From NCBI GenBank assembly GCA_965248925.1, contig CBDFLE010000006.1:2240001-2304000 (forward strand): a stretch of DNA of 64,000 bases, in the 5' to 3' direction. How positions within the stretch are numbered: the stretch's first letter is position 1; every line of letters starts with the position of its first letter. A model generated the notes under the pieces. It searched no databases, had not been told where the DNA came from, and saw nothing but the letters and a program-made list of their open reading frames with translations. Of the stretch, positions 36,741 through 52,405 are shown in pieces. Origin of the DNA: Candidatus Multivoradales bacterium (GTDB lineage: Bacteria > Acidobacteriota > Thermoanaerobaculia > Multivoradales > J023). The translations under genes were made by a program, and so were the position numbers.

Positions 36741-36817
36741 GCACCCGTAGCTCAACTGGATAGAGCGTCTGACTACGGATCAGGAGGTTAGGGGTTCGAC
36801 TCCCTTCGGGTGCACCA
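36741..36817 (+). tRNA. tRNA-Arg(ACG); probable island integration site
   Basis: GCACCCGTAGCTCAACTGGATAGAGCG-TCTGA CT ACG GA TCAGG-AGGTTAGGGGTTCGACTCCCTTCGGGTGCACCA. Confidence 0.97.
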
Positions 36818-36831
36818 TTTAACTCCCTTGA

Positions 36832-36904
36832 AATCAACTAATTAGGCACACCACTCGGCTACTGCTGTGTTCTCTGTTTCTGGAAAGTAACCAGGAAGTA
36901 ACCA
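36832..36904. promoter_or_regulatory. att-arm signals: IHF-like site and tandem arm-type repeats
   Basis: AATCAACTAATTA (36832-36844) fits WATCAANNNNTTR; AAGTAACCA repeated at 36885-36893 and 36896-36904. Confidence 0.6.
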
Positions 36905-36993
36905 GAGCAGATGTGCTCATGTGAGCCACCCTTCGCCTCTCCTGCGCCTTTGTAGAGCGAACTCATCTGAGTTCGCCTGGAAGAACTCGCCCA

Positions 36994-38298
36994 ATGAAGG
37001 GGGGAACGGTGGCGGATCTATGGTGGTACCCGATTGGTTTCGTGGCAGCCCTACTGGGGTATGTCCAGTTGCACAATGCCCGGAGTGGTCGCCAGAAAGC
37101 CGGCTCCCTATTCTGGGCTGGTGGCGCTGCCTACCTCGCCTTCCGGAACTTTTGGCTCTTCGAGTACGCCGATACGGATCGGTTGATCTGGTTTGCTCTG
37201 ATCTTCTGTGCCGCCAGCCCCGTGCTTGGCTATCTGTGGTGGGGGCGTGACGGTGAGATTCGGCGAAGATTCTTCCGCATGCTTCTGTTCTTGGCGCTGT
37301 TGACCGTGGGATTCGTCGGTTGGTCGTTTGTCGTGGAATCACCCTTGGCAGTCCTGGTGTTGGCTCTCTCTACCGCTGTCCTCCCGTTCCTTCCCGCACG
37401 AAAGTTCCGGGGCTGGCTTACTCGACGCCGTCTGGTCGCCAGGGGTCGCGACGAGCAGCGCCAAGCCCATCAGCTCAGTGAAGCCGAGCATCGACAGCAA
37501 GAGATCGAGCTTGCCCAATCTCACCAAGCGCAAGCCGCGACCCAGCGTCAGCTCACGACAAAGGAAAAGCAGGTCGCTGCCCTCAAGCGCAAAGATGCGC
37601 AGCGGCGCCAAAAGAAGGAACTGCGCCGACAAGAGATCTCTGGCCAGATTCAGCAGCTGCGCGAAGCCGAAGTGGAACAAGTGCAGCGTGGCAAACCAGA
37701 TCTCCGCTTCCATGCCGACTACGGTTTCCTGATAGCCGAAGCTTGGCGCGTGCTCCGCGCGCAGATCGCCCGTGGTGACCGTGTGCCCGCGGTCGAGCAC
37801 GACGCCTTCTTTTTCCAGGTCGTTGAGGAGTTGCTCGCAGCCGAAGATTTCGAAGGGCGGTACTTCCATGCCAAAGGTCGGAAAGCGATCACCACCGCCA
37901 ATCGCTATCTCGCCGGGCGTGTTCCGCTGCGGAAGGCGGTACGCCAAATCCAACGTCTGCGCTTGACCCCGGCGCAGCTGGCCCCGGAACCGCTTCAACA
38001 CGGTGTAGGGGCCGAGCTGCTCGAAGTGTGGCTCGTGCCCCACCGCCGCTTGCAGGCGGCGCAATGGGAGGAATTCCAAGACGGGAACCACACCTACCAT
38101 GTGCAGATCATGACCGTCTGGACCCGGAGGGGGAAAGGGAGCGGCCAACCCAATCGCCAGCAGTGGCAAGACCTCTGGGATGAGCAACCGGCGTTGTTCC
38201 TGAAGCCCGTCACCACGTCAACAGCGCAGTCACGGCAGAAAGCATCCCCATGGCGGAAAGTGGTTTCCAGTATCTCGCAGCGCGTCAAAGCCAGATAG
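36994..38298 (+). CDS. Membrane protein with a coiled coil (unknown function)
   Basis: About 5 N-terminal TM segments, then a Q/R/K-rich helical region; overlaps the ATPase gene. Confidence 0.75.
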   Translation: MKGGTVADLWWYPIGFVAALLGYVQLHNARSGRQKAGSLFWAGGAAYLAFRNFWLFEYADTDRLIWFALIFCAASPVLGYLWWGRDGEIRRRFFRMLLFLALLTVGFVGWSFVVESPLAVLVLALSTAVLPFLPARKFRGWLTRRRLVARGRDEQRQAHQLSEAEHRQQEIELAQSHQAQAATQRQLTTKEKQVAALKRKDAQRRQKKELRRQEISGQIQQLREAEVEQVQRGKPDLRFHADYGFLIAEAWRVLRAQIARGDRVPAVEHDAFFFQVVEELLAAEDFEGRYFHAKGRKAITTANRYLAGRVPLRKAVRQIQRLRLTPAQLAPEPLQHGVGAELLEVWLVPHRRLQAAQWEEFQDGNHTYHVQIMTVWTRRGKGSGQPNRQQWQDLWDEQPALFLKPVTTSTAQSRQKASPWRKVVSSISQRVKAR

Positions 38299-40172
38299 AC
38301 CACCGCGTCCACGCCGGGAATCGGTTCGCTGGCGGACAGGCGGTTTGGCTGAGCGAGAAAGAGCGCGCGGTGCACACCTATGTCTGCGGTGTGTCCGGCT
38401 CCGGCAAGAGCCGTTTTCTCCAAAATCTGCTGTTCCAAGATATTGGGAAAGGGCATCCCGTCGCGCTGATCGACCCGATGGGCGACCTCTACCGCAGCGT
38501 GCTCGAGTTCGTCGCCACCGGTTTGGAACGCGCCGCAGAATGCGGCTTCACCCGCCGTGAGCTGCTGCCGCGCTATCTCTTTCTCGACGCATCTGACGAA
38601 GGAAACTCTCTGCAACTAAACCCGTTCGAGAGTAGCCCGCACGAAAGCAGCGAACAGCAAGTGGACGACCTGATGAAGGCGCTCGAACGTCTGTTCGATG
38701 GAAAGCTCGAAGAACAGCGCCGACTGAGAAATGTGCTGCGCGCCACCTTTATCCTGATCGCTGAACTCAACCGTCTACCCTTGCGGCAGCGCCCACCGCT
38801 CCTGGGCTTCATCGCCGACACCAGCTATCCGCTGACGCTGTTCTCTGCCCCCGACATTCTCAACATGAAGAACAACGAGCGGCAGCTGCTGCTCGATGCC
38901 CTTCCTTCCTCACCTCGTCTGCATTTCCAGCGGCAGTACTGGCAAAATCTGGCGCAGAATCCGCGTGAACAGAGCCAGATCGTGCAATCGAGCTGGAACG
39001 TCCTGCAGTACCTGCTCGCCGATGACCTGGTGCTGCGAGTGTTCGGCACACAGCGCAGCACCTTCGACTTCACGACCCTGCTGCGTGACGGCATCAGCCT
39101 GTTCTGCTTTCTCCCGAAGAACGAGAATCTCGCCGGAGCGCGCTTCCTCGGCAAGTACCTGACGACGAAGCTCCAGCACACCGCGTATCGCCGACCACAG
39201 GCGGAATGGCAGCGGGCGTACGCCCTCTACCTCGACGAATTCCACCACTTCGTTGACCAAACCTTCGCCGACGCCATGACCAATCTGCGGAAATTTGGTC
39301 TGCGGGTGACCAACGCGCACCAGACCCAATCCCAGCCGCCCTTCGACACCCGTGAAGGACAGTCACTGCTGAAAACCATCCGCGCCAACTCCCGCGTGAA
39401 GGTGCTCTTCCGCCTCGATCGCCCCGATGCCGAGCAGCTGAGCAAGGAGCTGTTCCAACTCACGCAGCAACGGGCGAACTTTCAGGCGACGGATCAGACG
39501 CAGGGAAGCTCTGAACAGCAAAGCAGTAGCCTGGCGCATTCGTCCGGCCAAACAACCGGCAGCGGCACGAGTTCGAGCCAGTCAAGTGCCCACAACACGG
39601 GTTCGTCCAGCTCGATGCGCGAAGATTCCGGCGGAGACCTACTGGGTGGCCAGGGTACGTCGGCAGGAAACAGCCTGAGCAGAAATCGCGGCCATTCTGA
39701 ACACTTCGGGTCTTCGGCGAGTGAACAGCGGACGCTCGGACAGTCGAAGAGCACTTCAGAATCTCGCACCACTCGCACGATCTACCACACCCTCGAAGGC
39801 GAGCGCGAGCTGCTGATCAACCAGCTTCAACACTTGCCCGATCGGCAGTGCTACGTCTCCACGGCGTCACTCCAGGCCGAGTTGGTCGAAACGCCCTACG
39901 TACCCGACAGCCACTACGCCTACGTCGCGGAGAATTTGCCGGAGCGGATCTTGGAGTTGCAGCGGGAGCGGCTGGCGGAGGGCCAGCGCGAGGAGTTTCA
40001 GAAGCCAGAAGTGAGGATGCTGCCGGCGGCGCAGGTGGTGGAGATCGAAGTGGCAGCGGCGCCAGAGGTGGTCGAGGTGGCTGCGATTGAAACAGTCGCA
40101 GAGGTTGAAGAGACGGTGGTGGAGCTGGCAGTGCTAGAGGTGCAGGACGAGGATGATCCGTTCTTGGACTAG
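38250..40172 (+). CDS. Type IV coupling-protein-like ATPase (TraD/TraG/HerA-like)
   Basis: Walker A GVSGSGKS, LIDPMGD, LNPF, Walker B LYLDEFHHF, RKFGL...AHQ, and a Ser/Gly-rich insert typical of coupling proteins. Confidence 0.85.
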   Translation: MAESGFQYLAARQSQIDHRVHAGNRFAGGQAVWLSEKERAVHTYVCGVSGSGKSRFLQNLLFQDIGKGHPVALIDPMGDLYRSVLEFVATGLERAAECGFTRRELLPRYLFLDASDEGNSLQLNPFESSPHESSEQQVDDLMKALERLFDGKLEEQRRLRNVLRATFILIAELNRLPLRQRPPLLGFIADTSYPLTLFSAPDILNMKNNERQLLLDALPSSPRLHFQRQYWQNLAQNPREQSQIVQSSWNVLQYLLADDLVLRVFGTQRSTFDFTTLLRDGISLFCFLPKNENLAGARFLGKYLTTKLQHTAYRRPQAEWQRAYALYLDEFHHFVDQTFADAMTNLRKFGLRVTNAHQTQSQPPFDTREGQSLLKTIRANSRVKVLFRLDRPDAEQLSKELFQLTQQRANFQATDQTQGSSEQQSSSLAHSSGQTTGSGTSSSQSSAHNTGSSSSMREDSGGDLLGGQGTSAGNSLSRNRGHSEHFGSSASEQRTLGQSKSTSESRTTRTIYHTLEGERELLINQLQHLPDRQCYVSTASLQAELVETPYVPDSHYAYVAENLPERILELQRERLAEGQREEFQKPEVRMLPAAQVVEIEVAAAPEVVEVAAIETVAEVEETVVELAVLEVQDEDDPFLD

Positions 40173-40981
40173 CCGGTTTCTTCTCCACCGCCCTTCTCCG
40201 CAATCGGGCTGTAGGCCCAACCCAATCGATATTTGCTTTCGCAATTCGAACATTTGATTACTTGTCCAATCCGGATCAAGCGGTTCTGGATGTACATTGC
40301 CTCTCGGCAATTTTGACAAACGACCCTCGTTTCCGGAATCTTGACGATCCATTCTTCTCCATCCTCTGTACGCTCCGCTTCGTGCTCAGCGCCACAGTCT
40401 GGATCAAGACAGATAGCCTTTCCCGACTCTTGCAATCCGTCATCGTTACAAACCACCTTCTGTCCGCAGGCGAGGCAGTCAAATTCTACATTTATGGCGA
40501 GACCCGCATCCATTGAGCTGGCTACTACAGGCCCAAGTTCCTCTAACATTCTCGAAAGTGCAGCGCGCATCTTTTCTAATCTGACCGGGTACGGTAGCCT
40601 GGGCGTAACGAACGGCTGATCTTCGTGAAGGTAGCTTCCGAGCTTGTTGTAGTGCTTCTGGACCCACTTGTACTTCACGGTGCGATGGGTTCCCATATGC
40701 TGCCATTTTTCGCCAGGCACCCCTAGCTCTGTTTCTCGCGCCATACGGAGGGTGAAGTCCTCGTCAGCGTTTGGCTCCAGTTGCAAAAGCGCCTTAAGTG
40801 CCTGGGGCGGTTGCCACTTTTTCTTTACCGACGCGGGAAGGCGGCTGGCATAGGTCTTGAGTTTGGAGTAGACGATGTCTTCCAGGCACAACCTCAGCTC
40901 CAAGGCGGCGTAGATCAATCGGTCGTCGTCGCCCGACTCAAGATGTTCTTTGGCTCTCCGATAATGCTCTCTCTTCGACAC
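40169..40981 (-). CDS. Hypothetical protein, HEPN-like N-terminus plus zinc ribbons
   Basis: YAALELRLCLE...YNKLGSYLH; four Cys pairs (CLAC, CLDPDC, CQNC, CSNC). Confidence 0.7.
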   Translation of the reverse strand: MSKREHYRRAKEHLESGDDDRLIYAALELRLCLEDIVYSKLKTYASRLPASVKKKWQPPQALKALLQLEPNADEDFTLRMARETELGVPGEKWQHMGTHRTVKYKWVQKHYNKLGSYLHEDQPFVTPRLPYPVRLEKMRAALSRMLEELGPVVASSMDAGLAINVEFDCLACGQKVVCNDDGLQESGKAICLDPDCGAEHEAERTEDGEEWIVKIPETRVVCQNCREAMYIQNRLIRIGQVIKCSNCESKYRLGWAYSPIAEKGGGEETG

Positions 40982-40996
40982 TGTTCTCCTCCCAAG

Positions 40997-41914
40997 TCAA
41001 GGTCTCCGTGCTCGCGCCAAACCCCTCCCCACCCCAACCCGATTCCTCCAGATCCCCTCGAACAAGACGTTCTGCGCCTTGAACGCTTCCACATCCGTCA
41101 TGCTCAGCAGCTCAAACCCCGGCTGCTCAGCCAACGACTCCGCCAGATTCTTCACCCGCCGCGGAGTCGTCGTCACCAGCAGCACCCGGAAGTCCCGCAC
41201 CTCGCCGTAGCGCTGCCAGAGCCGGTTTTCGGGAACAGTCGGATCTGACGCTTTCAGATAGTGGTGGTACGCCAACAGCTTCGTCGCCAACTGTTGCGAA
41301 CTCTCCGATCCGCGATCCGCTTCAAGGAAGTAGAGCCTCGCCCGCTTTCCCTGCCGCAGAGCAAAGACCAGATCGGGGCGAATGCGCAGCGGAACCGACT
41401 CCCCAGCCACGACCACATCTTCCTGCGTCACGAAGCGCTCGACGTGTTTGCGCTTCGCCGGATTGCCCACCGCATGCGTCGTCAGGAACGGCACACCGAG
41501 AGGTGCCAGATCGGAAAGCTCGAAGCTGCTGCGCCGGATCGACTCCACAAACCGCACTGCCCCCTCGCTGACCAGCAGGGCATGTTGAAGCTGGCGCTCC
41601 GTTTCCTCCCCGCGTGGCTGGTACAGCCGCCTCTGGCGAATACCAAACCGTTCGCGCAGCTCCGGCAATGCTTGCTCGGTTAGGAAGTAGATGCGCTCGC
41701 GCGTCTCCACCATCCGATCATCCGCCAGATAGCCAGCTTGGTAGAGCCGACGCAGCCGTTTGCGCACGTTGTGCAACGACGAGAGGCGTCCCGTGCCCGG
41801 CTGGAAATAGCCCAGCCGCCGCAGCTGCCCGAGCGTCAACACGCGCAGCATCCAGAGCCAGCTAAACAGCTCGACATCGGTGGCGGTCAGCACTAATCGG
41901 GAAACACGAAGCAC
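40997..41914 (-). CDS. Replication-relaxation family (MOBC-like) relaxase
   Basis: N-terminal winged helix (RKRLRRL...GYL), LQHALLVSE, RPDLVF, YFLEADRGSE, KLLAY and FRVLLVT motifs. Confidence 0.85.
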   Translation of the reverse strand: MLRVSRLVLTATDVELFSWLWMLRVLTLGQLRRLGYFQPGTGRLSSLHNVRKRLRRLYQAGYLADDRMVETRERIYFLTEQALPELRERFGIRQRRLYQPRGEETERQLQHALLVSEGAVRFVESIRRSSFELSDLAPLGVPFLTTHAVGNPAKRKHVERFVTQEDVVVAGESVPLRIRPDLVFALRQGKRARLYFLEADRGSESSQQLATKLLAYHHYLKASDPTVPENRLWQRYGEVRDFRVLLVTTTPRRVKNLAESLAEQPGFELLSMTDVEAFKAQNVLFEGIWRNRVGVGRGLARARRP

Positions 41915-41938
41915 GCCCGGATTCTACCGCGAGACGCC

Positions 41939-42175
41939 TCACCATTCCGGTCCCGGATCCGATGTTGACGACCGCAGCTGCGCCTCGATCCACGCTTCCA
42001 GATCCTCCGGCCGGTAGCGAATCGCCCGCGCCGAGATCTTCACGAACTGCGGTCCGCGACCCTGATAGCGCCACGCCTGCAAGGCGCGCGGCGTCAGGCT
42101 GAGCAGCTTCGCCGCTTGCACCTCTGTCAGGAGCGGTTGGCGCTGCGCGTGCGTAGTTTTCTCCATCGCGATCAT
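41939..42175 (-). CDS. Excisionase/AlpA-like HTH protein
   Basis: LLTEVQAAKLL.LTPRALQAWR..GRGPQFVK....IRYRPEDLEAWI; GGAGG RBS. Confidence 0.88.
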   Translation of the reverse strand: MIAMEKTTHAQRQPLLTEVQAAKLLSLTPRALQAWRYQGRGPQFVKISARAIRYRPEDLEAWIEAQLRSSTSDPGPEW

Positions 42176-42543
42176 CGTGTGCCTCCATGTTTCTTCACGA
42201 GTCTGAAACGCCCCTACTGGGCTTCGCTGTACGTCCGTTCGGCCATATGAAAACGCTAGCAAGCCCCTGAAATCCTGCCAATTACCCTTCTGCCGTACCC
42301 GCTGCTTGGGTACCCCCACCGGGTGGGCTCAGCGGGTAGGCTTCGTTTTCTTAAACTACTGAAATAGAACGGATTCGACATTCTCACTTTCTCTACTCGC
42401 AGATCCCGCTCTGCGCACCAGAAGAGGGAAACACTCTTCCGACCGGCTGTCGGGAACGCTGGTGGCTGGTGGGGTGGCGGTGGGGATCGGGATGGAAGAT
42501 GAAGAAACGGGAGCCCAAGCCAATGGACTCCCGTGGTCACCGG

Positions 42544-42723
42544 TCATTCCGGCAGTGAGCCATTCTCCGTCAGGAAGACTTCGCCAAGCTTGGAGCCGCA
42601 ACTCAGGCAGCGATAGATGGTCCAGCGACGCTCTGGATGATTGAGCAAACGGCTGTCTTCAATGCAGAGGTCGTGCTGCTCGATCTCGCACATCGGACAA
42701 GTGAAGGATTTGAAGTTCTTCAT
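42544..42723 (-). CDS. 59-aa zinc-ribbon microprotein
   Basis: MKNFKSFTCPMCEIEQHD...YRCLSCGSKL; directly downstream of hairpin B. Confidence 0.65.
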   Translation of the reverse strand: MKNFKSFTCPMCEIEQHDLCIEDSRLLNHPERRWTIYRCLSCGSKLGEVFLTENGSLPE

Positions 42724-42743
42724 GGGAAGAGGGGTTAAAGGAT

Positions 42744-42857
42744 GAAAACGCCCTCGCGCTACCGGTGAGGAGCGCCGGGTCCAGGAGGAGTCGCGCCGCA
42801 GGCGTGAAGGCTCCTGGAGGCGGCGCGAACGACGCCGGTACGCTGAGAGGAGTTTTC
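42744..42857. promoter_or_regulatory. Long imperfect hairpin B, putative ssDNA (Frpo-like) promoter
   Basis: Nested inverted repeats GAAAAC/GTTTTC, TACCGG/CCGGTA, GCGCCG/CGGCGC and TCCAGGAG/CTCCTGGA; tip CGCC-GCA-GGCG; TACGCT-GAGAGG in the right arm. Confidence 0.6.
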
Positions 42858-42961
42858 GACGGCAACTCAGGGTCGGAGGGTGGCGGTGGTGGATGAGGAA
42901 CTTGCAGCAGCGAGCATGAAAAGAGGGAGCCGCCCAGCCAGGCTGGAAGACTCCCGAGTAC

Positions 42962-43597
42962 TCACGCCAATCCCAGACGCTTGCGCGCAATCGCCGCGTA
43001 CTCCGGATCCAGCTCGATGCCGTAGAAATGTCGCCCCAGGCGCTGCGCCGCCTCACCAGTTGTCCCCGAACCCGCGAACGGATCAAGCACCATGTCGCCC
43101 GGCCTGGAAAATGCGCCGATCAGCGGCTCGATCGCACTGAGCGGTTTCTGCGTCGGATGCAGTCTGTTGCCCGTGTAACTCCACGGCAGTACATCATTGA
43201 GTAGCACCGCCGGTTGCTCTGGCTGACCTTTAGCCAGCAGATACGCCGACTCGTGCAAGCGCCGGACATACCGTTGAGACGACGCATACGATTTCGCCCA
43301 GACCAAGTGCCCGACCGGTCGCAGACCGGACTGCCGCCAAGCATGGAGAAACGTGTCCGCCTGCTGCCAACCATAAAACGAGATGCAGTAGCTGTTCGCC
43401 TTCAGCACCCGCGAGATTTCTTGAAAGGCCGGCTCCAGCCAATCGGCTTGTCGGTCGTTGCAAATCTTCCGCCCATCACGCGAGCGGTAGTCCACCAAGT
43501 ACGGCGGATCGGTGACCACCAGATCCACCTTGGCGTCCGGTACGCCTTTGAGAACTTCGATGCAGTCGCCGGTGATGATTTTGGAATGTGTCTTCAT
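42962..43597 (-). CDS. Orphan N6-adenine/N4-cytosine DNA methyltransferase (beta class, plasmid leading-region type)
   Basis: VTDPPY, HPTQKP and VLDPFAGSGTT motifs; no cognate endonuclease nearby. Confidence 0.92.
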   Translation of the reverse strand: MKTHSKIITGDCIEVLKGVPDAKVDLVVTDPPYLVDYRSRDGRKICNDRQADWLEPAFQEISRVLKANSYCISFYGWQQADTFLHAWRQSGLRPVGHLVWAKSYASSQRYVRRLHESAYLLAKGQPEQPAVLLNDVLPWSYTGNRLHPTQKPLSAIEPLIGAFSRPGDMVLDPFAGSGTTGEAAQRLGRHFYGIELDPEYAAIARKRLGLA

Positions 43598-43657
43598 AAG
43601 AAGTGAGAAAAAAAAGAGCAACGGAGCCAGCCTTCGACTGACCAGCTCCGCCGCCAA
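43598..43657 (-). repeat. Hairpin plus U-tract leader, copy 1
   Basis: AGAAGTGAGAAAAAAAAGAGCAACGGAGCCAG is 31/32 identical to the copy at 43850. Confidence 0.85.
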
Positions 43658-43659
43658 TG

Positions 43660-43848
43660 CTAGCCACAGCAGTCTGGATTGGCACGCTTGCCGTCCAGCT
43701 GATCAAGGTGACAGCTACATAGGAAACCAGCGCAATTCGGGCATTGATACTCAGTAGTGGAGTTCCCGCCATAGGAGCCAGCAGTCGTGATCCAGGCATC
43801 ATCTTGTTCCTTCTGGCAGTTCGGGCAGATGTAGGAGTTGGAGTTCAT
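43660..43848 (-). CDS. 62-aa Cys-rich zinc-ribbon microprotein
   Basis: MNSNSYICPNCQKEQDD...YQCPNCAGFLC; fits exactly between the two leader repeats. Confidence 0.7.
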   Translation of the reverse strand: MNSNSYICPNCQKEQDDAWITTAGSYGGNSTTEYQCPNCAGFLCSCHLDQLDGKRANPDCCG

Positions 43849-43906
43849 GAGAAGTGAGAAAAAAAAGAGCAGCGGAGCCAGTATCGAGTACCAACTCCGC
43901 CGCTGC
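43849..43906 (-). repeat. Hairpin plus U-tract leader, copy 2
   Basis: Near-identical to 43598-43657 except in the loop. Confidence 0.85.
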
Positions 43907-43914
43907 CGATGATG

Positions 43915-44118
43915 TTAGACCGCGTCAGCTGCCGACCGACCGGTCGAAGGTGCAGCCTTCGGCTCCATCAGGACGAACCGGCCATCAGGCGGCAGAACGT
44001 CCAAAACGACATTCAAGCCGTTGCCGTTCTTGGTCTTCCAAGCGGCGCCGATCTTCGTGAAGAAACCGTCCTTGACGTGGAAGGCTTCATAGACCGGAGT
44101 GTTCTTTGCAGAACTCAT
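43915..44118 (-). CDS. 67-aa mobile-element hypothetical protein
   Basis: FTKIGAAWKTKNGNGLNVVLDVLPPDGRFVL, a small beta-rich type I associate with plasmids/ICEs. Confidence 0.7.
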   Translation of the reverse strand: MSSAKNTPVYEAFHVKDGFFTKIGAAWKTKNGNGLNVVLDVLPPDGRFVLMEPKAAPSTGRSAADAV

Positions 44119-44161
44119 GAGAAAATGGGTAAAAGAATAAAAAACGCCGACCGAGTGAATC

Positions 44162-44320
44162 GATCGACACCTTGAGCACAGCAGACAGAGGCTCCGCGCC
44201 GCAAGGAGGAGTCGCAGGGAAGGCACAGGAATAGTCCGCCGCAGGCGGAATCTGCTGTGCCGACCGAGAAGCTCCTTGCGGCGTGGAGATGTCTGCTAAA
44301 ATGAGAGGTGTTGAGCGATC
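44162..44320. promoter_or_regulatory. Long imperfect hairpin A, putative ssDNA (Frpo-like) promoter
   Basis: Arms ACACC..GCAGAC..CTCCGCGCCGCAAGGAG / CTCCTTGCGGCGTGGAG..GTCTGC..GGTGT; tip CCGCC-GCA-GGCGG; TTGCGG (44276) and TGcTAAAAT (44297) in the right arm. Confidence 0.65.
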
Positions 44321-44332
44321 CCTCCATTCAGA

Positions 44333-44361
44333 TTGACCGATCCTTATCGAGAAAGTACAAT
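44333..44361 (+). promoter_or_regulatory. Sigma70-type promoter
   Basis: TTGACC-17 bp-TACAAT upstream of ORF 44388. Confidence 0.7.
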
Positions 44362-44387
44362 ATATCTACTTTCATTACTCCTGCCTC

Positions 44388-44630
44388 ATGGCTCATTCAG
44401 CCACCTTCGACACCCTCGCCTACGCCAAGAAAATGAAAGCTGCCGGCTTCACCGAGCAGCAAGCGGAAGGTCAAGCCGCAGCCCTCGCTGAAGTCATTGA
44501 CGAACGGATGGCAACCAAGCAAGATTTGCAGAATCTGGAAGAGCGGCTGATCCTCAGACTCACTATCCGTACCGGCAGCATGCTTGCTGCCACCATCGCG
44601 ATTCTTGCTACCCTGATCAAATTGCTTTAG
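44388..44630 (+). CDS. DUF1640/CCDC90-like small protein
   Basis: FDTLAYAKKMKAAGFTEQQAE...ATKQDL, with a C-terminal TM segment. Confidence 0.85.
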   Translation: MAHSATFDTLAYAKKMKAAGFTEQQAEGQAAALAEVIDERMATKQDLQNLEERLILRLTIRTGSMLAATIAILATLIKLL

Positions 44631-44701
44631 TTTCGCTCCCCAAAACCCACTTGCTGGATTCTGAGAGAAGTGTACAATGAGACTATTCTCACCTGAATCC
44701 C

Positions 44702-44845
44702 ATGGCCTTAACCGTCCAGAAACTCCGCAAGATCACCGGCAGCAAGACCCTTGAAGATTTCAAGCGCGACTACAAGAAGCGCACTGGACAAGAGCTGAAG
44801 AAGGTCCCGAAGCTCTCCCTGAAGACCAAGCTTGTTCTCAAGTAA
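44702..44845 (+). CDS. 47-aa Lys-rich microprotein
   Basis: MALTVQKLRKITGSKTLEDFKRDYKKRTGQELKKVPKLSLKTKLVLK, preceded by TTGCTG-16-TACAAT. Confidence 0.55.
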   Translation: MALTVQKLRKITGSKTLEDFKRDYKKRTGQELKKVPKLSLKTKLVLK

Positions 44846-44847
44846 CT

Positions 44848-45237
44848 ATCGAGATCCTCATCCGCCAGCGCCGGCCTTTCGTCCAGCTACCCGTCTTGAC
44901 CAAGACTGGGCGTTTCCGAAAAATGCGATTTCTCGTCGATACTGGCTTCACTGGAAGCTGTGTCTTCATTATTCGCAAAGGCGGAACCGTGCCCGATGTC
45001 GACTTGTCGGAGATCGAGGAGCTGCCAGCAGAAAGTTGGATCGAGGTCGCCAGCGGCGAGCAGGAACGGACCTTCTCAGCACTGACCGCCTTCAAGCTCG
45101 AAGCTGACACCCCATTGCCGGTGCTGTTGATGGAAGCCGAGGACTACGATGATCCGATTGTGGGCATGCAGTTCCTGGAAGAGCAGCAAAAGACCCTGCA
45201 CCTCGACTTTGGCGCGCGGTCGTTCTACTTGAATTGA
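44848..45237 (+). CDS. Clan AA (retropepsin-like) aspartyl protease
   Basis: FLVDTGFTG catalytic motif and PIVGMQFL. The frame is open upstream of TTG 44896, so the start is uncertain. Confidence 0.75.
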   Translation: MEILIRQRRPFVQLPVLTKTGRFRKMRFLVDTGFTGSCVFIIRKGGTVPDVDLSEIEELPAESWIEVASGEQERTFSALTAFKLEADTPLPVLLMEAEDYDDPIVGMQFLEEQQKTLHLDFGARSFYLN

Positions 45238-45506
45238 TCCGATCGAGATCAGCCACACCGCAGCGCTGAGCACAACACTGCATTGTGCGAAGTTGTAACG
45301 GAGTGGAAACTCCTCGCACAATGTCCGGTTGTGCCGGCGCGGTATTGACTGCGATCTGATTGGATTCTTGGGAATGGAGAAACCGACCAACCCCCACCCG
45401 AAGGGTCGGGATCACCAATACGACCAGAATGCGTCCCGCGCACTTCTCGTACTTTTCAATCGGAAGTTCGAACTGATCGCGAGATGTTCTTCGTGTCTGC
45501 TGCCCT

Positions 45507-46808
45507 CTATTGAGGGAAACGGACCTTCCTCGCAGTGGGGGCGATTTCGATCTGGTGAGGAAGATAGCTGCCTTCGACCCAGGCGATGACCATCCCATCT
45601 AACGTCCTGCGAAGCTTCTCCGTTGCCTTGAGGAACCCAGCAAGCGAGTGAATCTCAGTCTCACCCTGCCACTCCTGATCGCCGCCTCCATCGTGGCGAG
45701 CTAGAGGTCGCCAAACCAGCAGAGGAACGCGCAGCGCGCCCAAATAGTTGGCAGCTTGCTGGGGCGTCAGCGAGCTGGAGTCCTCGACGCGTCCCGATCG
45801 GATTAAGACCACGGCGCGGGCTCGCCCGGAACCAGCGGCTACGAAACCCGCCATCGCAACGGCATCCGCAATACGTTGCGATCCCTGCGGAAAATCCCGA
45901 TCAGGAAAAAAGCTATTCGCAACTAGTTCCAAGAGGGAGCGTGAGCCGTTGTCAGAAATGTCTTCTGACACCGGGAGAGCAGAGATCGCCGTCAGGTCTG
46001 GTGCTTCTTCCGCAAACACGACCCGTAGCTGATCGCCAGGACGCAAGCCGCGCAGATCTCGTCCCGAGAGGTCTCCCTTTCGCCGCACATGCATAAGCAA
46101 GTAGAGGTCCATCAAAGATTCAAGATTCCACTCTGACCCCTCGCGTACCACCACGATCTCGGCGTACCCGTGATCGACTGCCACCGTGCGTAACGGGCGC
46201 TTCTGAGCAGTGAGGACTTGCTGGAGATGCTCCAGCTTGACGCTACGGCGTCGACCCCAGGCTAGAGGGACGCTTGTGAGACCGCTCTGTGCGACATCTT
46301 GGAAACAGCAACCGAGCACCATCGTTGCTTGCGCTCGCAGCGTATCGGTGAAGACAACCTCTGCACGAAGAAGATTAGGCGCAGTCGGATCGAGCTTCGG
46401 AAGCGCAACGATCCCTTCCTGATCAACACTGAGGGCTAGGTCATCGAGCGAGACCGTAGCAGCTCGTTCCTTCCGGCCAGCCCGCTCTTCCCAGACGAGA
46501 CGAACAGTGTCCGGCGTTCCCTGCTCCCGAACGAAGCGAGCCGCGACTTCGGCGCCGGGGATATTAACGAGCTGACGCGCCTCCGCGACCGCGTCGCCAT
46601 TTGGCAATCGCCCGACCGCGCGGAGTTCGTGAGGCAGGAGAGCATTCCCCAGATCGCAGACGATCGCCCACGGCTCGTCATGGTCGACCCCGCAACTGGT
46701 ACCGTCGAGGAACAGCTCGACGCTCACCACCTCGGCACTCGTGGATGCCAGTCTCACTTCCTGGGGGCCAGTCATCAGGCCGAGGAAGAGCGTCAGGAAT
46801 TCGAGCAT
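45507..46808 (-). CDS. Hypothetical exported protein (Ig-like N-terminus, VWA-like C-terminus)
   Basis: VELFLDG...PWAIVCDLG...HELRAVG (Ig-like); IADAVAMAG...RARAVVLI (VWA-like). Confidence 0.7.
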   Translation of the reverse strand: MLEFLTLFLGLMTGPQEVRLASTSAEVVSVELFLDGTSCGVDHDEPWAIVCDLGNALLPHELRAVGRLPNGDAVAEARQLVNIPGAEVAARFVREQGTPDTVRLVWEERAGRKERAATVSLDDLALSVDQEGIVALPKLDPTAPNLLRAEVVFTDTLRAQATMVLGCCFQDVAQSGLTSVPLAWGRRRSVKLEHLQQVLTAQKRPLRTVAVDHGYAEIVVVREGSEWNLESLMDLYLLMHVRRKGDLSGRDLRGLRPGDQLRVVFAEEAPDLTAISALPVSEDISDNGSRSLLELVANSFFPDRDFPQGSQRIADAVAMAGFVAAGSGRARAVVLIRSGRVEDSSSLTPQQAANYLGALRVPLLVWRPLARHDGGGDQEWQGETEIHSLAGFLKATEKLRRTLDGMVIAWVEGSYLPHQIEIAPTARKVRFPQ

Positions 46809-46855
46809 CTCAACTCTCTGGTTTCAGGTGACCCGGCTCGGAACGAACGCATTCT

Positions 46856-47617
46856 CTAGTCGGCGCGATAATCGATCTGGAATGAGAGCAGAGTAAGAGA
46901 CCCCACGCTCGCAACGGCCTTTTCGTCATAGCGGAACTTCGCATAGGTGTTCAACGTCACATAGGCAAAGATCGGCGGACCAGAAGTCTCGCGAACCACC
47001 GGGCGTGCGACCGAGCCGTCCTCACGGACATCAACATAGAACGACACCGATCCACCAATTCCGGAAATTACCATTGCCGACATGAGGCGAGTTGCTTCCT
47101 TACCCTGCTGCTCCATGTTCCATCGAACCTGAGCCTGGGCTACAGCCGGAGTCGAGTTCACGACTTTTTTTGTGCCGAGATCAGAGGAATCGAGCACCTC
47201 AGTCAGTAAACGGGCATCTTGGCCCTCCAAGACTCGCGCTGCCAATCTGGGGAATGTGGAGAGTTTCAGGTCTCTGACTCCAGGCGCCAGGTTCTGAGCA
47301 ACATGCCACATCCAGAGTGCCCTGTCCTCTTCTCCAGTACCGGCTAGTGCGAGCGCTTTTAGTGCTGCGAGATGCCCTAGAGATCCGGCATCCATAATAC
47401 GTTCAGCGCTCGACTCAATAAGCGCGAGTTCAAGACGATGAATTGCGCGGGACGCCTTCTTCCAATTAGCTGCTTGGAGAAAAGTCTCTATCCTCTCCAT
47501 CTTTGCAGACGTCAACTGCGCGGCTGTCAATGCTGGTGCCCAAAAGACCAGGAGCGCTAAGCTGAATCTGACAAGTGGCGTTCTCACGGAACCAGCAGAA
47601 CCGACAATCCTACTCAT
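46856..47617 (-). CDS. Exported protein with a helical domain and divergent TonB C-terminal-like domain
   Basis: Signal peptide; C-terminal GSVSFYVDVREDGSVARPVV...FAYVTLNTYAKFRY. Confidence 0.65.
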   Translation of the reverse strand: MSRIVGSAGSVRTPLVRFSLALLVFWAPALTAAQLTSAKMERIETFLQAANWKKASRAIHRLELALIESSAERIMDAGSLGHLAALKALALAGTGEEDRALWMWHVAQNLAPGVRDLKLSTFPRLAARVLEGQDARLLTEVLDSSDLGTKKVVNSTPAVAQAQVRWNMEQQGKEATRLMSAMVISGIGGSVSFYVDVREDGSVARPVVRETSGPPIFAYVTLNTYAKFRYDEKAVASVGSLTLLSFQIDYRAD

Positions 47618-47713
47618 AGAATATAGAGCCCCAGGGAGAGATTAGTCTCGAAAATAATGCGCGGTGCGACGCCAGGACGACGGACTGGATTGATCGCTAC
47701 GAGCTAACGATCG

Positions 47714-47929
47714 CTAGGAGCAAGTTGTCTCGGTGAATTGCACTGCGGTACCGTTTGAAAGAAAGTAGAGATATGTGATTTGGTGGCAGACGATCTGCCC
47801 TCCCCCCGAGAAGACGATATCGTCAACGATGATGTAGTCTAGGCACTCGCCGGATGGCGCACATTGCCCGAAGCTGATTGCGGGGAGGAACACGAGCATG
47901 AGAGCTGTGAGAATTACTGCTAGTTTCAT
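47714..47929 (-). CDS. Secreted four-cysteine peptide 1
   Basis: GGAGG RBS; MKLAVILTALMLVFLPAISFG-QCAPSGEC...VC...TTCS. Confidence 0.72.
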   Translation of the reverse strand: MKLAVILTALMLVFLPAISFGQCAPSGECLDYIIVDDIVFSGGGQIVCHQITYLYFLSNGTAVQFTETTCS

Positions 47930-48290
47930 AGGAATAGCCTCCAAAGTAGAAATACGTAAACAGAGTACCCAAAGTACCTCTTGTCAGCACCGCACTAGAC
48001 ACTCTATCATTATAGACAAGGGGCTGGCGATGACCTTGTTCTCTTCTCACTAGGCATCTGTCGATGCACCAGCATCACTCTCCCAGAGGAATTTGCGGCA
48101 CCGCGCCGCTAGTTTCCGGTCATGGTTTTGGACCAGAGACCTCGCCGCGCAAGTGAGTTCTTCTGACGCTGGACACCTGGAGTTTTTCATCAAGAGAAAA
48201 AGAAGAGACGGCCGGCCCTATCCGCATCGAATGGCGACCATCCGGAGCCCAGATTCCCTGTTTCCAAGCGATGTCGTCTCTCGCCAGTAG

Positions 48291-48701
48291 CTAAGATCCT
48301 AATTCGCGAATCAAGCGCTGCCGTATTCGCCGCATGCGCGATCTGTCACCTCGAAAGCGCGCAATCCGCGAGCCGAGCACCGTGATCAGCCCGGCGTATT
48401 CGATCCCGCGATCTCGCTCCGGATCGAGCAGGTCATGCGCACGTTTCCAGGTCCGACCGTCCGCCGAGAGCAGCAGATCCACCTCTCGGTTAAGTTGCAA
48501 CGCTGAGAACGCCCAATGGAAGGACCCGATCCTGATCTGCGCATCGCGCGCTAGTTCTTGCAGGTCGGCCAGCAACGGTCCCGTCAGCGGATCGCGGCCG
48601 ATCAGATACCACGCCAGCCGGCCGAGTTCTGGACTCGCCTCTTCCGCTAATAGCAGCAAGTTGGCGACATCATCGTGCTTGGGCGTGAGCGCCGGGGTCA
48701 C
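48291..48701 (-). CDS. Hypothetical protein
   Basis: 136-aa ORF with a GTGA overlap with the upstream gene. Confidence 0.6.
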   Translation of the reverse strand: MTPALTPKHDDVANLLLLAEEASPELGRLAWYLIGRDPLTGPLLADLQELARDAQIRIGSFHWAFSALQLNREVDLLLSADGRTWKRAHDLLDPERDRGIEYAGLITVLGSRIARFRGDRSRMRRIRQRLIRELGS

Positions 48702-48964
48702 GGCTCGACTTTCTCCGGCATCAACCGCTGGGTCTGTACTCTGGCTACGCGCAACCGCGTGGTGAGCAACTCCAGATCCTCCTGCCTGCCGCTCTCCAGC
48801 ATTCGCAGGATTCGGGCCGCCGCATTCTGGGGCCGGTCAGCATGGTCGAAGTCCGGTTCGGGCAAGGCCGCACAGATCTGGACGAGCCGCTCCTCGATCG
48901 CGCCAAGCTCGGCTTCCAAATCTGCCAGGGCGGCGGGAAGGTCGGCGAGTTGTAGCGTCTTCAT
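48698..48964 (-). CDS. Small helical hypothetical protein
   Basis: MKTLQLADLPAALADLEAELGAIEERL...; preceded by a hairpin plus U-tract leader. Confidence 0.65.
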   Translation of the reverse strand: MKTLQLADLPAALADLEAELGAIEERLVQICAALPEPDFDHADRPQNAAARILRMLESGRQEDLELLTTRLRVARVQTQRLMPEKVEP

Positions 48965-49440
48965 CAGGAGAAAGAAAAAGGGTGGCGGCCACAGTGGGAG
49001 GGATTGGCGTGTACCACTGCGACCGCCGGATGAGAGAGAAAAGAACCCCAGTTCGCAATCGGTTGCTTTCGGGACCCCAATACTGCGCCACCCCGATCCT
49101 GATGGCCAGAGCACGCCCCTGAGCTAGTTTCCTGCTTTGCCGCCCAGCCGCAGGACTTTTTCCCTGTCCCAAAACCAGCACTCGCCCTCCAAGCGCGTTC
49201 GCCTGCGCGTTTCTTCTGGCGTAGGTCAGCGGCCAGACAATGTGCCTTGCCCAACCGCCTGAACAGACCCTAGGGTCGATCGACCGACCGGCCAACAAAC
49301 CCGATCATGGTGATTGCGGGAAGAGGTGTGGCCGCAGGAGATTGGAAATGTCCCAGGCTCAAGTATCGAGAACCCGGATGGCGACTTCAGACGGATTCAG
49401 CCCACATATCGATCCATCTGGCTAAGGCGAGAGTGCCGCG

Positions 49441-51123
49441 CTACTCGTGAAGGCGCGGAATCTGGATCAACAAGCGCAGCGTCGCTTGGAGCTGCTGGAG
49501 CAAGTCGCGGCTCAGCCGTTCTTCGGCTATGGCAGTTCTGAGTAGGCCCAGCGCTACCAGCACTTCACGATGAATCCGGAGCCCTTCAAGAGTGGGAATC
49601 AGCGACATGGCGATCTCAGCTGTGGAGCGGTTACGTTTTTGCTCCAAGAAGAGAACGGCGAGATCGAGCGAGATGACGGCGGCATAGCCTGTTTCGCCAC
49701 TGTCAGCGAAGCCTTGCTGCGCCGTTTGGAACGCTTGTTCAGCGCTCGCAAGGTCTGACTTGCTCTGCGCGATCAGACCCCGCAGCCAGCAGAGTTGGTG
49801 CTGCCCGATTTGATAGCGATGGCGCGCGCAAAGTTCCGCGGCACGAGGAAGGTGCTGCTGTGCTTCTTCGTAGCGCTCGGCCAGGGTCAAAGAGGTGGCC
49901 AGGTTGACGGTCAGAGCGAGTTCGAGATGGGAGTCTGTACTCGCTGTGTTCGCCAGGCACTCTTTCGCGCGCTGGAGATCAGGGACGGCGTCCGCTGGTC
50001 GGCCATCGAGATCGGCGATCAACGCCCGGCGCAGCAGCACGCGGCAAACCTGCTGGGGAGGACTGTCGCTTCGGTCCAATTCGCCCATGGCCTGGTTGAC
50101 CAACTCTGCTGCCTCTACCAAGCGGCGCTGGTACACCCGCAAGCCGGCTTTGAGATCGTAGAGATCGGCGGCGACGGCAGGGTTCGGCGGCTGCGAAGCT
50201 GCCAGCCAGCAATGCTCTGATTCGGCGAACGCCAGCTCGGCGCCGGCGTAGTCCAGCGCCAGTCGCCGGGCGTTGCCGATCCACGCCCACGCCTTGGCAG
50301 ACAAGTCCGGCAGCAAAGCACCGAGCGCCGAAGCGCTGCCTTGCAAGCTCTCCAGTGCCAGCTCGGCCAACTGGATACCGCGCTGGCGGTCACCTCGCCC
50401 CTCCTGACGGCTCTGCTTCAGCAGGAAGTCGAAGAGCGCCGCTGAGCGGAACGAGATCCGCGAGCGCACGAATTCAACTTGCTCTACGGAGGAAAGATCA
50501 CGAATCGTTTCCCAGACCACTACAGCGAAGGCTTTCTCAAACTGGACGCCGTCAACCAACAGCTTGTGCGCGTTTGCATCTGCTGACGTGGGATAGAGCA
50601 GACGCCAGCGGCGGCGCAACACGGCAGCCTCGGCTGGATCGAGTTCGCCAACCAATGCTCGCCGCCAGTAGTCAGCAGAAAACATCTCCTGCTGCGCACT
50701 TCCGGCTCTCGCAGTGGCTTGCCCATCAGCCTTGCAAAAGTCAGCCGGGCGCATGCCGCTCCAGCGCGTGAAGGCACGGGAGAACACCGATGCGGAGGAG
50801 TAGCCCACCAAGTCGCCGATGGCTGAGATACGCAGCTCCGAGGTTCGCATCAGCTCGACCGCCGTCTGCAAGCGCGCATCTTCGATATAGACACTGGGCG
50901 GTATGCCGACGTGCTGCCGGAAGAGGAGCGGAAACGAATTGTCGCGGATACGGCCGGCAATCTTGAGCCGACTGACATTGAAGCCAGGTTCAAAGAGGTG
51001 CTCTTGCAGGTAGCGGAGCACCGGCACGAGCTGCGCCGGTGCCCTCTCGCGGTCGCTGCGGATGCGCGCGAGCGCAGAGGCGGCGGCGGTGTCCAGCAGA
51101 GCTTGGGAATGGTCGAGCTGCAT
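49441..51123 (-). CDS. Regulator with N-terminal AraC-type HTH and C-terminal TPR region
   Basis: FRQHVGIPPSVYI...RL..A.ELM...ISAIGDLVGYSSASVFSRAFTRWSGMRP, then TPR-like helices (AWAWIGNARR, NLATSL...RYEEA); AAGGGGAG RBS. Confidence 0.88.
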   Translation of the reverse strand: MQLDHSQALLDTAAASALARIRSDRERAPAQLVPVLRYLQEHLFEPGFNVSRLKIAGRIRDNSFPLLFRQHVGIPPSVYIEDARLQTAVELMRTSELRISAIGDLVGYSSASVFSRAFTRWSGMRPADFCKADGQATARAGSAQQEMFSADYWRRALVGELDPAEAAVLRRRWRLLYPTSADANAHKLLVDGVQFEKAFAVVVWETIRDLSSVEQVEFVRSRISFRSAALFDFLLKQSRQEGRGDRQRGIQLAELALESLQGSASALGALLPDLSAKAWAWIGNARRLALDYAGAELAFAESEHCWLAASQPPNPAVAADLYDLKAGLRVYQRRLVEAAELVNQAMGELDRSDSPPQQVCRVLLRRALIADLDGRPADAVPDLQRAKECLANTASTDSHLELALTVNLATSLTLAERYEEAQQHLPRAAELCARHRYQIGQHQLCWLRGLIAQSKSDLASAEQAFQTAQQGFADSGETGYAAVISLDLAVLFLEQKRNRSTAEIAMSLIPTLEGLRIHREVLVALGLLRTAIAEERLSRDLLQQLQATLRLLIQIPRLHE

Positions 51124-51199
51124 GGTTCAGATCTCCCCTTGGATATGTTTGGGGGAACTGTAGCAGAATCTCTGGGCAGGGCAAGCTGGCGGTCAGGAA

Positions 51200-51404
51200 G
51201 GAGGGTGGTGGTGGTGGTGGTGGTCGAGGGTATCTGGACAGACTCGGGAATCACCGCTATCGTGCCGGTGTTGTCGCCGGAGAACGGCTGATTTTGCCAG
51301 TCCGAGATGCCAACCTCGACTACCCCGTTCTAGACGAGGTTCTGAGTGTCCTGGAAAAGCGTTCAGGCGAAGAGAACCAACGGCAGACAGCGGAGACGGT
51401 GCAT
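51200..51404 (-). pseudogene. Degraded gene for a secreted protein
   Basis: AGAAGGAG RBS, then MHRLRCLPLVLFA*TLFQDTQNLV*NGVVEVGISDW with two in-frame stops. Confidence 0.4.
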
Positions 51405-51982
51405 GGCGAGACTCCTTCTGACGAGTCCGAGTACGGGTTCAAGATGAATCGCCTAGATAATCCGTGGCGGGTTTCTCGTCAAGGTTCTCTGTAATCGCCG
51501 CATGGGCCAACTGCGGCTGGACAAGGAGAACGAGCGCCAGTTGGAGTTCGTGGCAGTGGAGGCGATTTGCGTGGCGCTGGGGCTGGGGTTTGGGGAGTTT
51601 GTGGGGAGGTGGAGGTGGGTTCTCGGGAGCTTCTTGGACGGGAAGAGCGAGGAACAGGGAGCCCAGGGTAATTGCGCAGGCCAAAGCCAGAAGAGTAAGC
51701 CTCGTAAGGCTAAGTCCCTTTTTTGTGAGCGATTTACGAGGATCCTTGAAATCGAGAAAATCTCTGATAAAGTAACGAATACGTAAGAAACGGGCAAAAA
51801 CCGACCACAACTGTCAAGCAATGCTACCATTCCAGGAGCGGTTTGCGCCTGTCGCAGGCCTACAACGGAGCCGAAAGAGCCCCTCTGGGCCTTGTTCGCT
51901 ATTACGCATCTGCCCTTCATTAGAAGGTGATCGTCGTTGTACCGGATGAGTGGGACCCCCAGTTGAGGGAGTATTGGCAGCA

Positions 51983-52018
51983 TTTGCCTTGACAGGCAAA
52001 GCCCCACAGGAGTAGTCT
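51983..52018 (+). promoter_or_regulatory. Sigma70 promoter with an operator-like dyad centred on the -35 box
   Basis: TTTGCC-TTGACA-GGCAAA, then TAGTCT at 52013-52018 (18-bp spacing). Confidence 0.6.
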
Positions 52019-52331: not shown

Positions 52332-52405
52332 GGTGGGTCACTCCATAGGGTGTGTTGCGGCTTCTTCCCAGCAGCACTCTTACCGAGTACCGACAGGGGA
52401 GAATT

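Follow-up and report, generated by a model that had tools for sequence, protein, structure and literature searches.

Intrinsic terminators lying inside the conjugation operons of pLS20 (conAn) and Tn916, where they are combined with antitermination, are thought to suppress spurious expression and to allow differential expression (PMC8955417, PMC8191782, PMC11658703). The repeats called start-associated sequences (SAS) and extended SAS in Cluster K mycobacteriophages have an unexplained, presumably translational function, and their conservation follows the gene family (PMC3203893). Ribosomal protein S1 binds U-rich or AU-rich leaders as translational enhancers (Boni 1991 and Komarova 2005, cited in PMC5397173), and phyla with few Shine-Dalgarno (SD) genes, the Planctomycetes included, have been linked to leaderless and/or S1 signals (PMC5397173). 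Here we describe hairpin leaders in a stretch of 64,000 nucleotides from a Candidatus Multivoradales bacterium (contig CBDFLE010000006.1; the whole stretch is called the window and its positions are used throughout), part of which belongs to an integrative mobile element with an array of four genes on the minus strand. Two of these genes are preceded by near-identical modules made of a hairpin, a U run and a short tail that ends at the start codon. The modules look like operon-internal intrinsic terminators (attenuators) fused to SD-less S1-type initiation regions, a reading that has in our judgement about an even chance. The related elements compared are that of the window, ICE-2 (in the same genome, C6:493411 to ~524000), G119 and the metagenome contig L087.

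Hairpin leaders in the window and in related elements

The array is read on the minus strand in the order p67, Zn62, methylase, p59, co-directionally with a helix-turn-helix (HTH)-relaxase operon, and a hairpin follows each of the four genes.

43915..44118, minus strand: p67, with which the array begins, encoding a conserved protein of 67 aa; its purine-poor leader carries a weak hairpin and T6 (44173-44141)
43846..43904, minus strand: module A, with a 16-bp hairpin at 43904-43868 (8 G-C and 4 G-U pairs, 5-nt loop), C+U8+CUCACUUCUC at 43867-43849 and the ATG of Zn62 at 43848
43660..43848, minus strand: Zn62, encoding a Zn-ribbon microprotein of 62 aa in which 8 Cys are conserved; the slot differs in how many copies of this gene it holds
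43595..43655, minus strand: module B, with a 16-bp hairpin at 43655-43617 (9 G-C and 6 G-U pairs, 7-nt loop), C+U8+CUCACUUCUU at 43616-43598 and the ATG of the methylase at 43597
42962..43597, minus strand: orphan N6/N4 DNA methylase of 211 aa (Pfam PF01555, E 8.9e-36; NF010253)
42925..42955, minus strand: hairpin followed by TCTTTTC after the methylase stop, its position kept in ICE-2 and G119
42544..42723, minus strand: p59, a second Zn-ribbon microprotein and distant Zn62 paralogue with a purine-poor SD-less leader, absent from ICE-2 and G119
42507..42534, minus strand: terminator-like hairpin and TTCTTCATCT after p59

In both modules the stem is followed by a C, eight T and ten C, T or A bases up to the ATG, 19 nt in total. 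Without the loops, A and B are identical at 46 of 49 positions (by reading), and their full leaders agree in 50 of 61 aligned columns. The RNA folds reach -26.1 kcal/mol for A (z-score -4.05) and -29.9 kcal/mol for B (z -3.43). The near-identical hairpin, U-tract and ATG leaders reported in an earlier note before 43597 and 43848 are real. Five pairs differ between the two stems and all five are still paired (one double change from A-U to C-G and four wobble-compatible single changes). Reading of the leaders confirmed the lack of an SD that the note had described, and A and B have no G either: the 19 nt before the ATG contain no GGAG, GAGG, AGGA or G, and the tails are unpaired in the minimum free energy (MFE) structures. 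Leaders of the element have 17-20 pyrimidines per 20 nt. When a 24-nt tail pattern was searched with up to 3 mismatches, A and B were the sole sites in the window (0.00 expected from 100 shuffles) and again the only ones in the whole 7.98-Mb genome.

The genes common to the window element and ICE-2 are a 434-aa open reading frame (ORF), a coupling protein, the relaxase, the HTH gene, the methylase, Zn62 and p67. G119 is the only match among 299 other genomes of the order, by the tail pattern as well as by p67. In 401 sampled genomes of the phylum p67 was found in its own genome, with one weak further match in G440 (E 8.1e-5); its homologues comprise those of ICE-2, G119 and L087 and ~20 metagenomic proteins in public assemblies. 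A metagenome search with p67 gave two loci, L087 and the distant L088, which lacks the methylase, and a search of viral contigs gave seven distant loci, two of which (L089 and L094) were examined and have SD-like sites and no module. The tail pattern matched 26 unrelated loci in viral contigs (G+C 0.28-0.49), and the only one with an adjacent strong hairpin (L120) looks like an ordinary terminator. When 300 genomes of the order were searched with a gapped form of the pattern (T run, YTCAC, ATG), two of them gave six sites, every one a module, and the reversed control gave none; with six of six matches in modules, the tail motif is a specific marker of the element family.

In G119 and L087 the slot that separates p67 from the methylase is empty of genes; in the window it is occupied by Zn62, and in ICE-2 by Zn62 together with Zn104, a 104-aa Zn-ribbon gene. 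Each slot gene and each methylase has a module of its own, which gives seven modules over the four elements, placed 15-40 nt past the stop of p67, Zn62 or Zn104. All seven fold, with MFE values of -26.1, -29.9, -22.8, -24.1, -16.6, -26.6 and -27.5 kcal/mol and z-scores of -4.05, -3.43, -3.97, -3.80, -1.58, -2.87 and -5.62 (at or below -2.87 in 6 of 7). Each stem is an uninterrupted series of 10-16 pairs, 1-6 of them G-U, and pairing is kept across five distinct sequences, conservation of pairs being read from single folds because the MAFFT/RNAalifold alignment of the leaders was structurally poor. A run of T7 or T8 starts 1-2 nt past the stem in every copy (7/7), and between the end of the stem and the ATG there are 19 nt in six of the copies and 20 nt in the seventh, a spacing that holds in L087 despite its diverged tail. 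Folded as DNA, the sense strand was more stable than the antisense strand in five of five comparisons because of the G-U pairs, an advantage that points to a one-directional signal selected at the RNA level.

Gene content thus varies among the homologous islands (0, 1 or 2 Zn-ribbon genes, with p59 in the window) while the leaders stay conserved; fixed gene content without conserved leaders, which the earlier note had named as refuting it, was not what the islands showed. Its further proposal, that different ORFs occupy the slots by cassette shuffling, is not supported: the genes in the slot all belong to a single Zn-ribbon family, as paralogues that have diverged. As paralogues the three Zn-ribbon kinds are far apart, with 30% identity over 54 aa (E 4e-4) in one comparison and, for p59 against Zn62, 29% over 51 aa (E 1e-5). 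This favours duplication, with homogenisation of the leaders, over shuffling of unrelated genes.

Leaders are more alike within an element (A and B 82%; the two Zn leaders of ICE-2 53 of 54 positions, 98%) than at orthologous positions between elements (61-63%), and this likeness fits recombination or gene conversion between the repeats. The two 98%-identical leaders of ICE-2 precede proteins with 30% identity over 54 aa, a contrast from which it follows that the leaders are homogenised by recombination, strongly constrained, or both. The coding DNA of the elements is ~65-70% identical, and the module stands at the same place in all four. It would be possible to see the modules as neutral relics of a recent tandem duplication of a gene with its flanking terminator, the leader being under no selection, since the occupants are paralogues and the high within-element identity is what a recent duplication leaves behind. 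Such an origin is very unlikely in view of the same ICE-2 pair, in which the leaders are nearly identical and the proteins are not, of the retention of the module in four elements with that coding divergence, and of the kept pairing and the invariant U run and spacing.

The variable number of slot genes, the single hairpin per unit and the promoterless cassettes are also features that single-strand sites for cassette insertion and excision, like the attC sites of integrons, would give. This reading is the least probable of those considered, with hardly any weight left to it. No R''/R' core site was found in 42400-45400 on both strands or in both leaders, and no integrase family among the 46 window proteins scanned with Pfam or among those scanned with NCBIfam. 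The stems are near-perfect and without extrahelical bases, attC sites have no use for a U run or for a set distance to an ATG, and the occupants are paralogous. The integron reading was rejected for its lack of core sites and of an integrase.

Start codons, host leaders and the proposed mechanism

Between the window and ICE-2, Zn62 has 71% aa identity, with 15, 9 and 33 differences at the three codon positions. Synonymous changes alone affect 24 codons and non-synonymous ones 18, all eight Cys are kept, and by this pattern the gene is under purifying selection. After the preceding in-frame stop, ATG 43848 is the first start codon available. In ICE-2, G119 and L087 the methylase homologues begin at the same ATG (plasmid homologues align from residue 3-5), and the p67 homologues share their start ATG. 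Judged from these comparisons, the ATGs downstream of the modules appear to be real starts. The selection on Zn62 and the like starts of the methylase and p67 homologues support their use, on which the earlier note had relied, and its description of terminator-shaped elements abutting start codons is borne out by elements that are conserved and strand-specific and by downstream ORFs that are real genes.

The host 16S rRNA has a normal anti-SD end. Among 530 host genes with unambiguous starts, GGAG or GAGG is present at -18..-4 in 42%, against 7% in a control region. The -20..-1 stretches of the same genes contain 8.8 pyrimidines on average (sd 2.2, max 15), and none of the 530 leaders has at least 16 pyrimidines in 20 or is free of G (0/530 for each). 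In the whole genome, 64 of 156,081 ATGs combine 17 or more pyrimidines and 8 or more T in the 20 nt before them with an ORF of at least 30 codons; 12 of these 64 fall in the two elements, which make up <1% of the genome, and the others are mostly internal ATGs or non-coding. The module leaders are foreign to the host. Complementarity between leader and 16S rRNA was not above that of shuffled leaders. A crude scan for terminator-like sites gave 676 genome-wide (0.85 per 10 kb, both strands), many of them in insertion sequence (IS) copies, and 105 of the 676 follow the end of a coding ORF; such sites, rare in the host, are clustered in the elements, where 530 nt of the window contain three and 1.4 kb of ICE-2 contain four.

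Leaders that are purine-poor and SD-less but have no hairpin were also seen in front of a MobC/NikA-like gene and of other small ORFs of the two elements (62910, plus strand; C6:518973 and C6:523869, minus strand). Their presence on other element genes makes this type of leader a signature of the whole element, beyond the array. Elsewhere in the genome, two high-copy IS-like repeats carry a hairpin and a T run just upstream of an ORF start (e.g. C6:312366, C5:1267725; C5:404678), one of them 28 nt before a 797-aa ORF in at least 25 copies and the other before a 57-58-aa ORF in at least 20 copies.

The modules have the sequence features of intrinsic terminators, namely a stable stem, U7-8 at once, a position past a stop codon and sense-strand specificity. 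In the reading preferred here the hairpin and its U7-8 would end transcription of the small gene before them as an intrinsic (Rho-independent) terminator. Lying inside a co-directional array, such terminators should act as attenuators or insulators: they would limit the transcription that reaches the next gene and so meter or silence the Zn-ribbon genes, the methylase and the relaxase operon. The minus strand of 40000-52000 gave no sigma-70-like promoter (the six found are all on the plus strand, and the consensus may not be that of the host). With the next gene only 19-20 nt on and no such promoter, the downstream genes are expected to be served by read-through, either leaky or dependent on a factor. 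The 19-20 nt past the stem, that is, the U run and the C/U stretch, would serve as an unstructured initiation region. The leaders being unable to pair with the anti-SD, initiation would be expected to depend on S1, which binds U-rich RNA and through which the 30S subunit would load. Upstream of a start codon the footprint of this subunit extends over roughly 20 nt, so that a spacing of 19-20 nt corresponds to the closest packing with the stem outside the footprint, and the fixed distance would place the stem just beyond it. The whole unit may have been copied with the Zn-ribbon genes by tandem duplication, the copies within an element being kept alike by recombination.

Several observations weigh against this mechanism. 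A stable stem with U7-8 should terminate efficiently and would starve the methylase and the relaxase operon unless read-through or unseen promoters supply them. Internal promoters are possible, as the consensus of the host may differ from the sigma-70-like one searched. No antiterminator of the NusG/RfaH type was found among the 46 window proteins scanned with Pfam or in the NCBIfam scan, searches by which factors of the pLS20 type are not necessarily detectable; several ORFs without an assigned family and the long structured leader upstream of p67 are the remaining candidates. The neighbouring HTH gene uses a normal GGAGG, so purine-free leaders are not obligatory in the element. The ICE-2 copy before the methylase folds weakly (z -1.58), and the sample consists of four elements, with two of the seven copies being 98% identical.

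The same arrangement could arise if the array were read as one transcript in which the hairpins are RNA processing or stability elements, either protectors of 3' ends or endonuclease sites that divide the transcript into single-gene mRNAs differing in stability, and the U run is chiefly a ribosome landing site. RNase III sites between the early genes of phage T7 cut its transcript into mRNAs in a similar manner. Each small gene has hairpins on both sides, the RNA-level structure is specific to one strand, the spacing of 19-20 nt would give each downstream cistron a 5' stem and a free initiation region, and no intergenic promoter was seen. The U7-8 present in 7 of 7 copies is a hallmark of termination that protective or RNase III hairpins do not need, and the stems are perfect or wobble-only, without the internal loops typical of RNase III sites. 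Processing is on this evidence an unlikely function, and the attenuator reading is retained as the preferred one.

The surrounding element and its leading-region-like features

The methylase belongs to the NF010253/PRK13699 subfamily (268.2 bits against NCBIfam NF010253, cut-off 244), known from enterobacterial plasmids, where it lies in the leading region. At least 5000 plasmid records, 3814 of them typed as conjugative, contain methylases that match it along the whole protein with 48-60% identity. In the one plasmid examined (CP063731.1) the homologue stands beside antirestriction, ssb and psiB genes, a classic leading region. A methylase search of genome contigs returned, among the best 80 loci, mostly generic methylases of ~26-37% identity and some short partial matches of 42-56%, and was not used. 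The array points toward an oriT-like repeat and the relaxase operon and has the same direction. The features concerned are listed below.

44145..44331 (core ~44298-44179), minus strand: long imperfect hairpin upstream of p67, from DNA and RNA folds, with counterparts in ICE-2 and G119
42270..42335, minus strand: conserved inverted repeat TACCCGC...GCGGGTA followed by GGGTAAWTGKCAG, just before the HTH-relaxase operon, which it separates from the array; present in the window, ICE-2 and G119
40997..42175, minus strand: HTH_17 gene (ATG 42175, with a GGAGG SD) and Replic_Relax relaxase gene (41914-40997)
45268-45335: two small inverted repeats with GCACAA/TTGTGC arms, kept in ICE-2 (C6:505595-505664) and G119 (L003 ~2090-2130)

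The repeat at 42270-42335 is a candidate origin of transfer (oriT) or operator, and the layout resembles a leading region next to oriT. The setting in a leading region with zygotic induction that the earlier note had suggested is accordingly plausible as far as the methylase subfamily and the co-direction of the array with the oriT-like repeat and the HTH-relaxase operon are concerned. The repeats at 45268-45335, separated from p67 by a three-gene insertion on the plus strand (44388-45237), are an alternative oriT or operator candidate, and relative to this second pair (45335-45268) the geometry of the array with respect to oriT would be reversed.

The long hairpin folds at -53 kcal/mol as plus-strand DNA (z -8.29) and at -97.1 kcal/mol as sense RNA (z -7.43). 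Its counterparts in ICE-2 and G119 fold alike, with outer stems that differ (folds made with no shuffle control). It carries a conserved pair of arms, AAGGAGC / GACTCCTCCTT, and has a shorter relative at ~42760-42880 upstream of p59. Three roles are conceivable for it, those of a single-strand promoter, a single-strand origin and a structured leader. Reading of the copies in the window, ICE-2 and G119 showed no conserved -10 and no -35/-10 pair in it (the promoter consensus of the host may differ), and Rfam held no family for the leaders or the long hairpin, the matches being weak (E 0.19-0.2).

This hairpin gives room for a further explanation, in which the terminators would insulate and silence the array in the resident double-stranded element and, on entry as single-stranded DNA, transcription starting from the long hairpin would read through them. 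Termination at hairpins would be impaired without the non-template strand, and the C/U leaders would form the weakest RNA:DNA hybrid and so free the start region. Leading-region genes are transcribed from the T-strand at Frpo promoters (PMC11541004), and the methylase here is of a leading-region subfamily. The array is co-directional with, and oriented toward, the oriT-like repeat and relaxase operon. F-type layouts have their leading region oriented likewise toward oriT and the relaxase operon. The z-score of the long hairpin as DNA (-8.29), the purine-free leaders and the weaker folding of the small hairpins on the antisense strand, which would be the template, agree with such a switch. Against it, the conserved repeat pair at 45335-45268 would give the opposite geometry, no -35/-10 pair is conserved in the long stem across the three elements, and the methylase homologue on the E. 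coli plasmid is preceded by an ordinary SD and lacks the module. The behaviour of termination on a single-stranded template is moreover argued from general knowledge, for which the literature searched gave no direct source. We consider a switch of this kind improbable, and a shade less probable still its fullest form, in which the start region would peel off the template to bind S1 as a hard-wired zygotic induction unlike the promoter-only Frpo.

The earlier note had also listed looser versions of the leaders at four places, each of which stands in part. At 48964 the combination of hairpin, U-rich stretch and ATG is real.

48962..49027, minus strand: module with a 14-bp hairpin at 49027-48984, 19 U-rich nt and the ATG (48964) of an 88-aa gene

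The hairpin (-30.8 kcal/mol, z -4.79) ends 19 nt before the ATG; the module is not homologous to A and B, to which it is analogous only, and it lies in ~12 kb of cargo without a counterpart in ICE-2. A leader family with a CTGGGGTCTCTTYC-like box, a hairpin of differing stem sequences and a T run covers 48962-49180 and precedes paralogues of an 88-aa/136-aa gene pair beside AraC-TPR genes at at least five loci, others of which are in C6 near 2554059, 4571378, 322011 and 2436549; this leader looks like an attenuator or a small RNA. At 42918 the hairpin 42955-42925 with TCTTTTC exists and is the conserved post-methylase terminator, with a fold that is not significant (z -1.80), but the 16-codon ORF behind it is not conserved: it begins with an ATG at 42917, corresponds to 8 codons from a TTG in ICE-2 and has no ATG in G119, and is probably spurious. 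The tract before 44118 has 17 of 20 pyrimidines, with a weak 9-bp hairpin and T6 whose 91-nt fold is not significant (z -0.66). At 48190 the pyrimidine tract is present without a hairpin (z 0.04), and the gene, a 46-aa ORF in the cargo missing from ICE-2, is doubtful because of its negative codon score (-7.3) and the absence of a paralogue.

As for the element as a whole, the housekeeping genes (ThiG, dNK, TsaD, GAPDH, PGK, TIM) stop near 36.7 kb and the mobile element lies to their right. A tRNA gene (36741-36814) is found at its left edge. The adjoining 434-aa ORF (region 36741-38298) has 44% identity with the one at the same position of ICE-2 and no Pfam, NCBIfam or PHROG match, and may be an unrecognised recombinase. 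A gene found by family search follows.

38250-40172, plus strand: type IV secretion system (T4SS) coupling-protein-like ATPase

Further element genes are the MobC/NikA-like gene and a second coupling-protein gene. This VirD4-like gene is apparently split by an IS21-type insertion in 56659-60100 (IstA 59981-58407, IstB 58647-57649), and only its N-terminal part (56659-57315) is intact. On the plus strand, 52352-56615 holds a 1082-aa ORF without a family match, followed by a SIR2_2-domain protein, a possible cargo defence system that is not in ICE-2. Three genes at 45507-47929 (433 aa; 253 aa, with a weak TonB_C match; 71 aa, which looks secreted from its sequence) recur at three other places of the genome, C6:325116-329094 and twice on contig C1. 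Among the small proteins of the array, a likeness of p67 to DUF736 was unsupported by Pfam and appeared as a lead (0.79) in Atlas only, a word-based search detected no homologue of Zn62, and PHROGs gave no match.

Comparison with known systems

The kinds of components assembled here are already known, as intra-operon terminators in mobile elements, S1-type leaders and leading-region islands. The literature searched contained no description of a leading-region array whose terminators are fused, with constant spacing, to purine-free leaders. With integron cassettes the array shares promoterless small genes with one hairpin repeat each and in variable number; it differs in having no core sites, no integrase and perfect stems, and the link of the U run to the start codon is foreign to attC.

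As in the S1-dependent enhancers, an unstructured U-rich tract stands upstream of a start with a weak or absent SD. Those described lie upstream of a SD or in long leaders, whereas here the tract doubles as the U run of a terminator and the whole leader is purine-free, in a host whose own genes have no such leaders (0/530). For the study of SD-independent initiation in a host that has received little attention, the modules are a natural test case.

The likeness to pLS20 and Tn916 consists in several intrinsic terminators in a co-directional operon of a conjugative or integrative element. In the present case the modules are placed 19-20 nt before starts, are fused to SD-less purine-free leaders and belong to an accessory array resembling a leading region instead of a transfer operon. 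No antitermination factor or RNA was recognised here, and those systems are from Gram-positive bacteria, whereas the present host is a high-GC bacterium. If the terminators are conditional, the timing or insulation of early genes would be achieved by a compact and portable device.

Among repeats already described, the SAS of Cluster K comes closest in shape. Both repeats are found directly upstream of the starts of some non-structural genes of a mobile element, and about half of the SAS copies have an imperfect inverted repeat with a variable spacer. The SAS has a GGAG core and no U run, while the present leader is purine-free, follows U7-8 and has the geometry of a terminator; the SAS moreover occurs in 11-19 copies, as against 2-3 per element here.

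The leading-region islands with Frpo (PMC11541004) have in common with the array an orphan methylase of the same subfamily, co-oriented small genes and a long imperfect hairpin before the first of them. They differ from it in that ssb, psiB and ardA are absent here and that neither a conserved -35/-10 pair nor homology to Frpo was seen; the word 'terminator' does not occur in that paper. Anti-defence islands of leading regions have so far been described mainly in enterobacterial and Gram-positive plasmids, with a focus on promoters and gene content. The island described here, with a methylase of the same subfamily, is found in an integrative element of an 8-Mb, 62% G+C bacterium and is wired differently.

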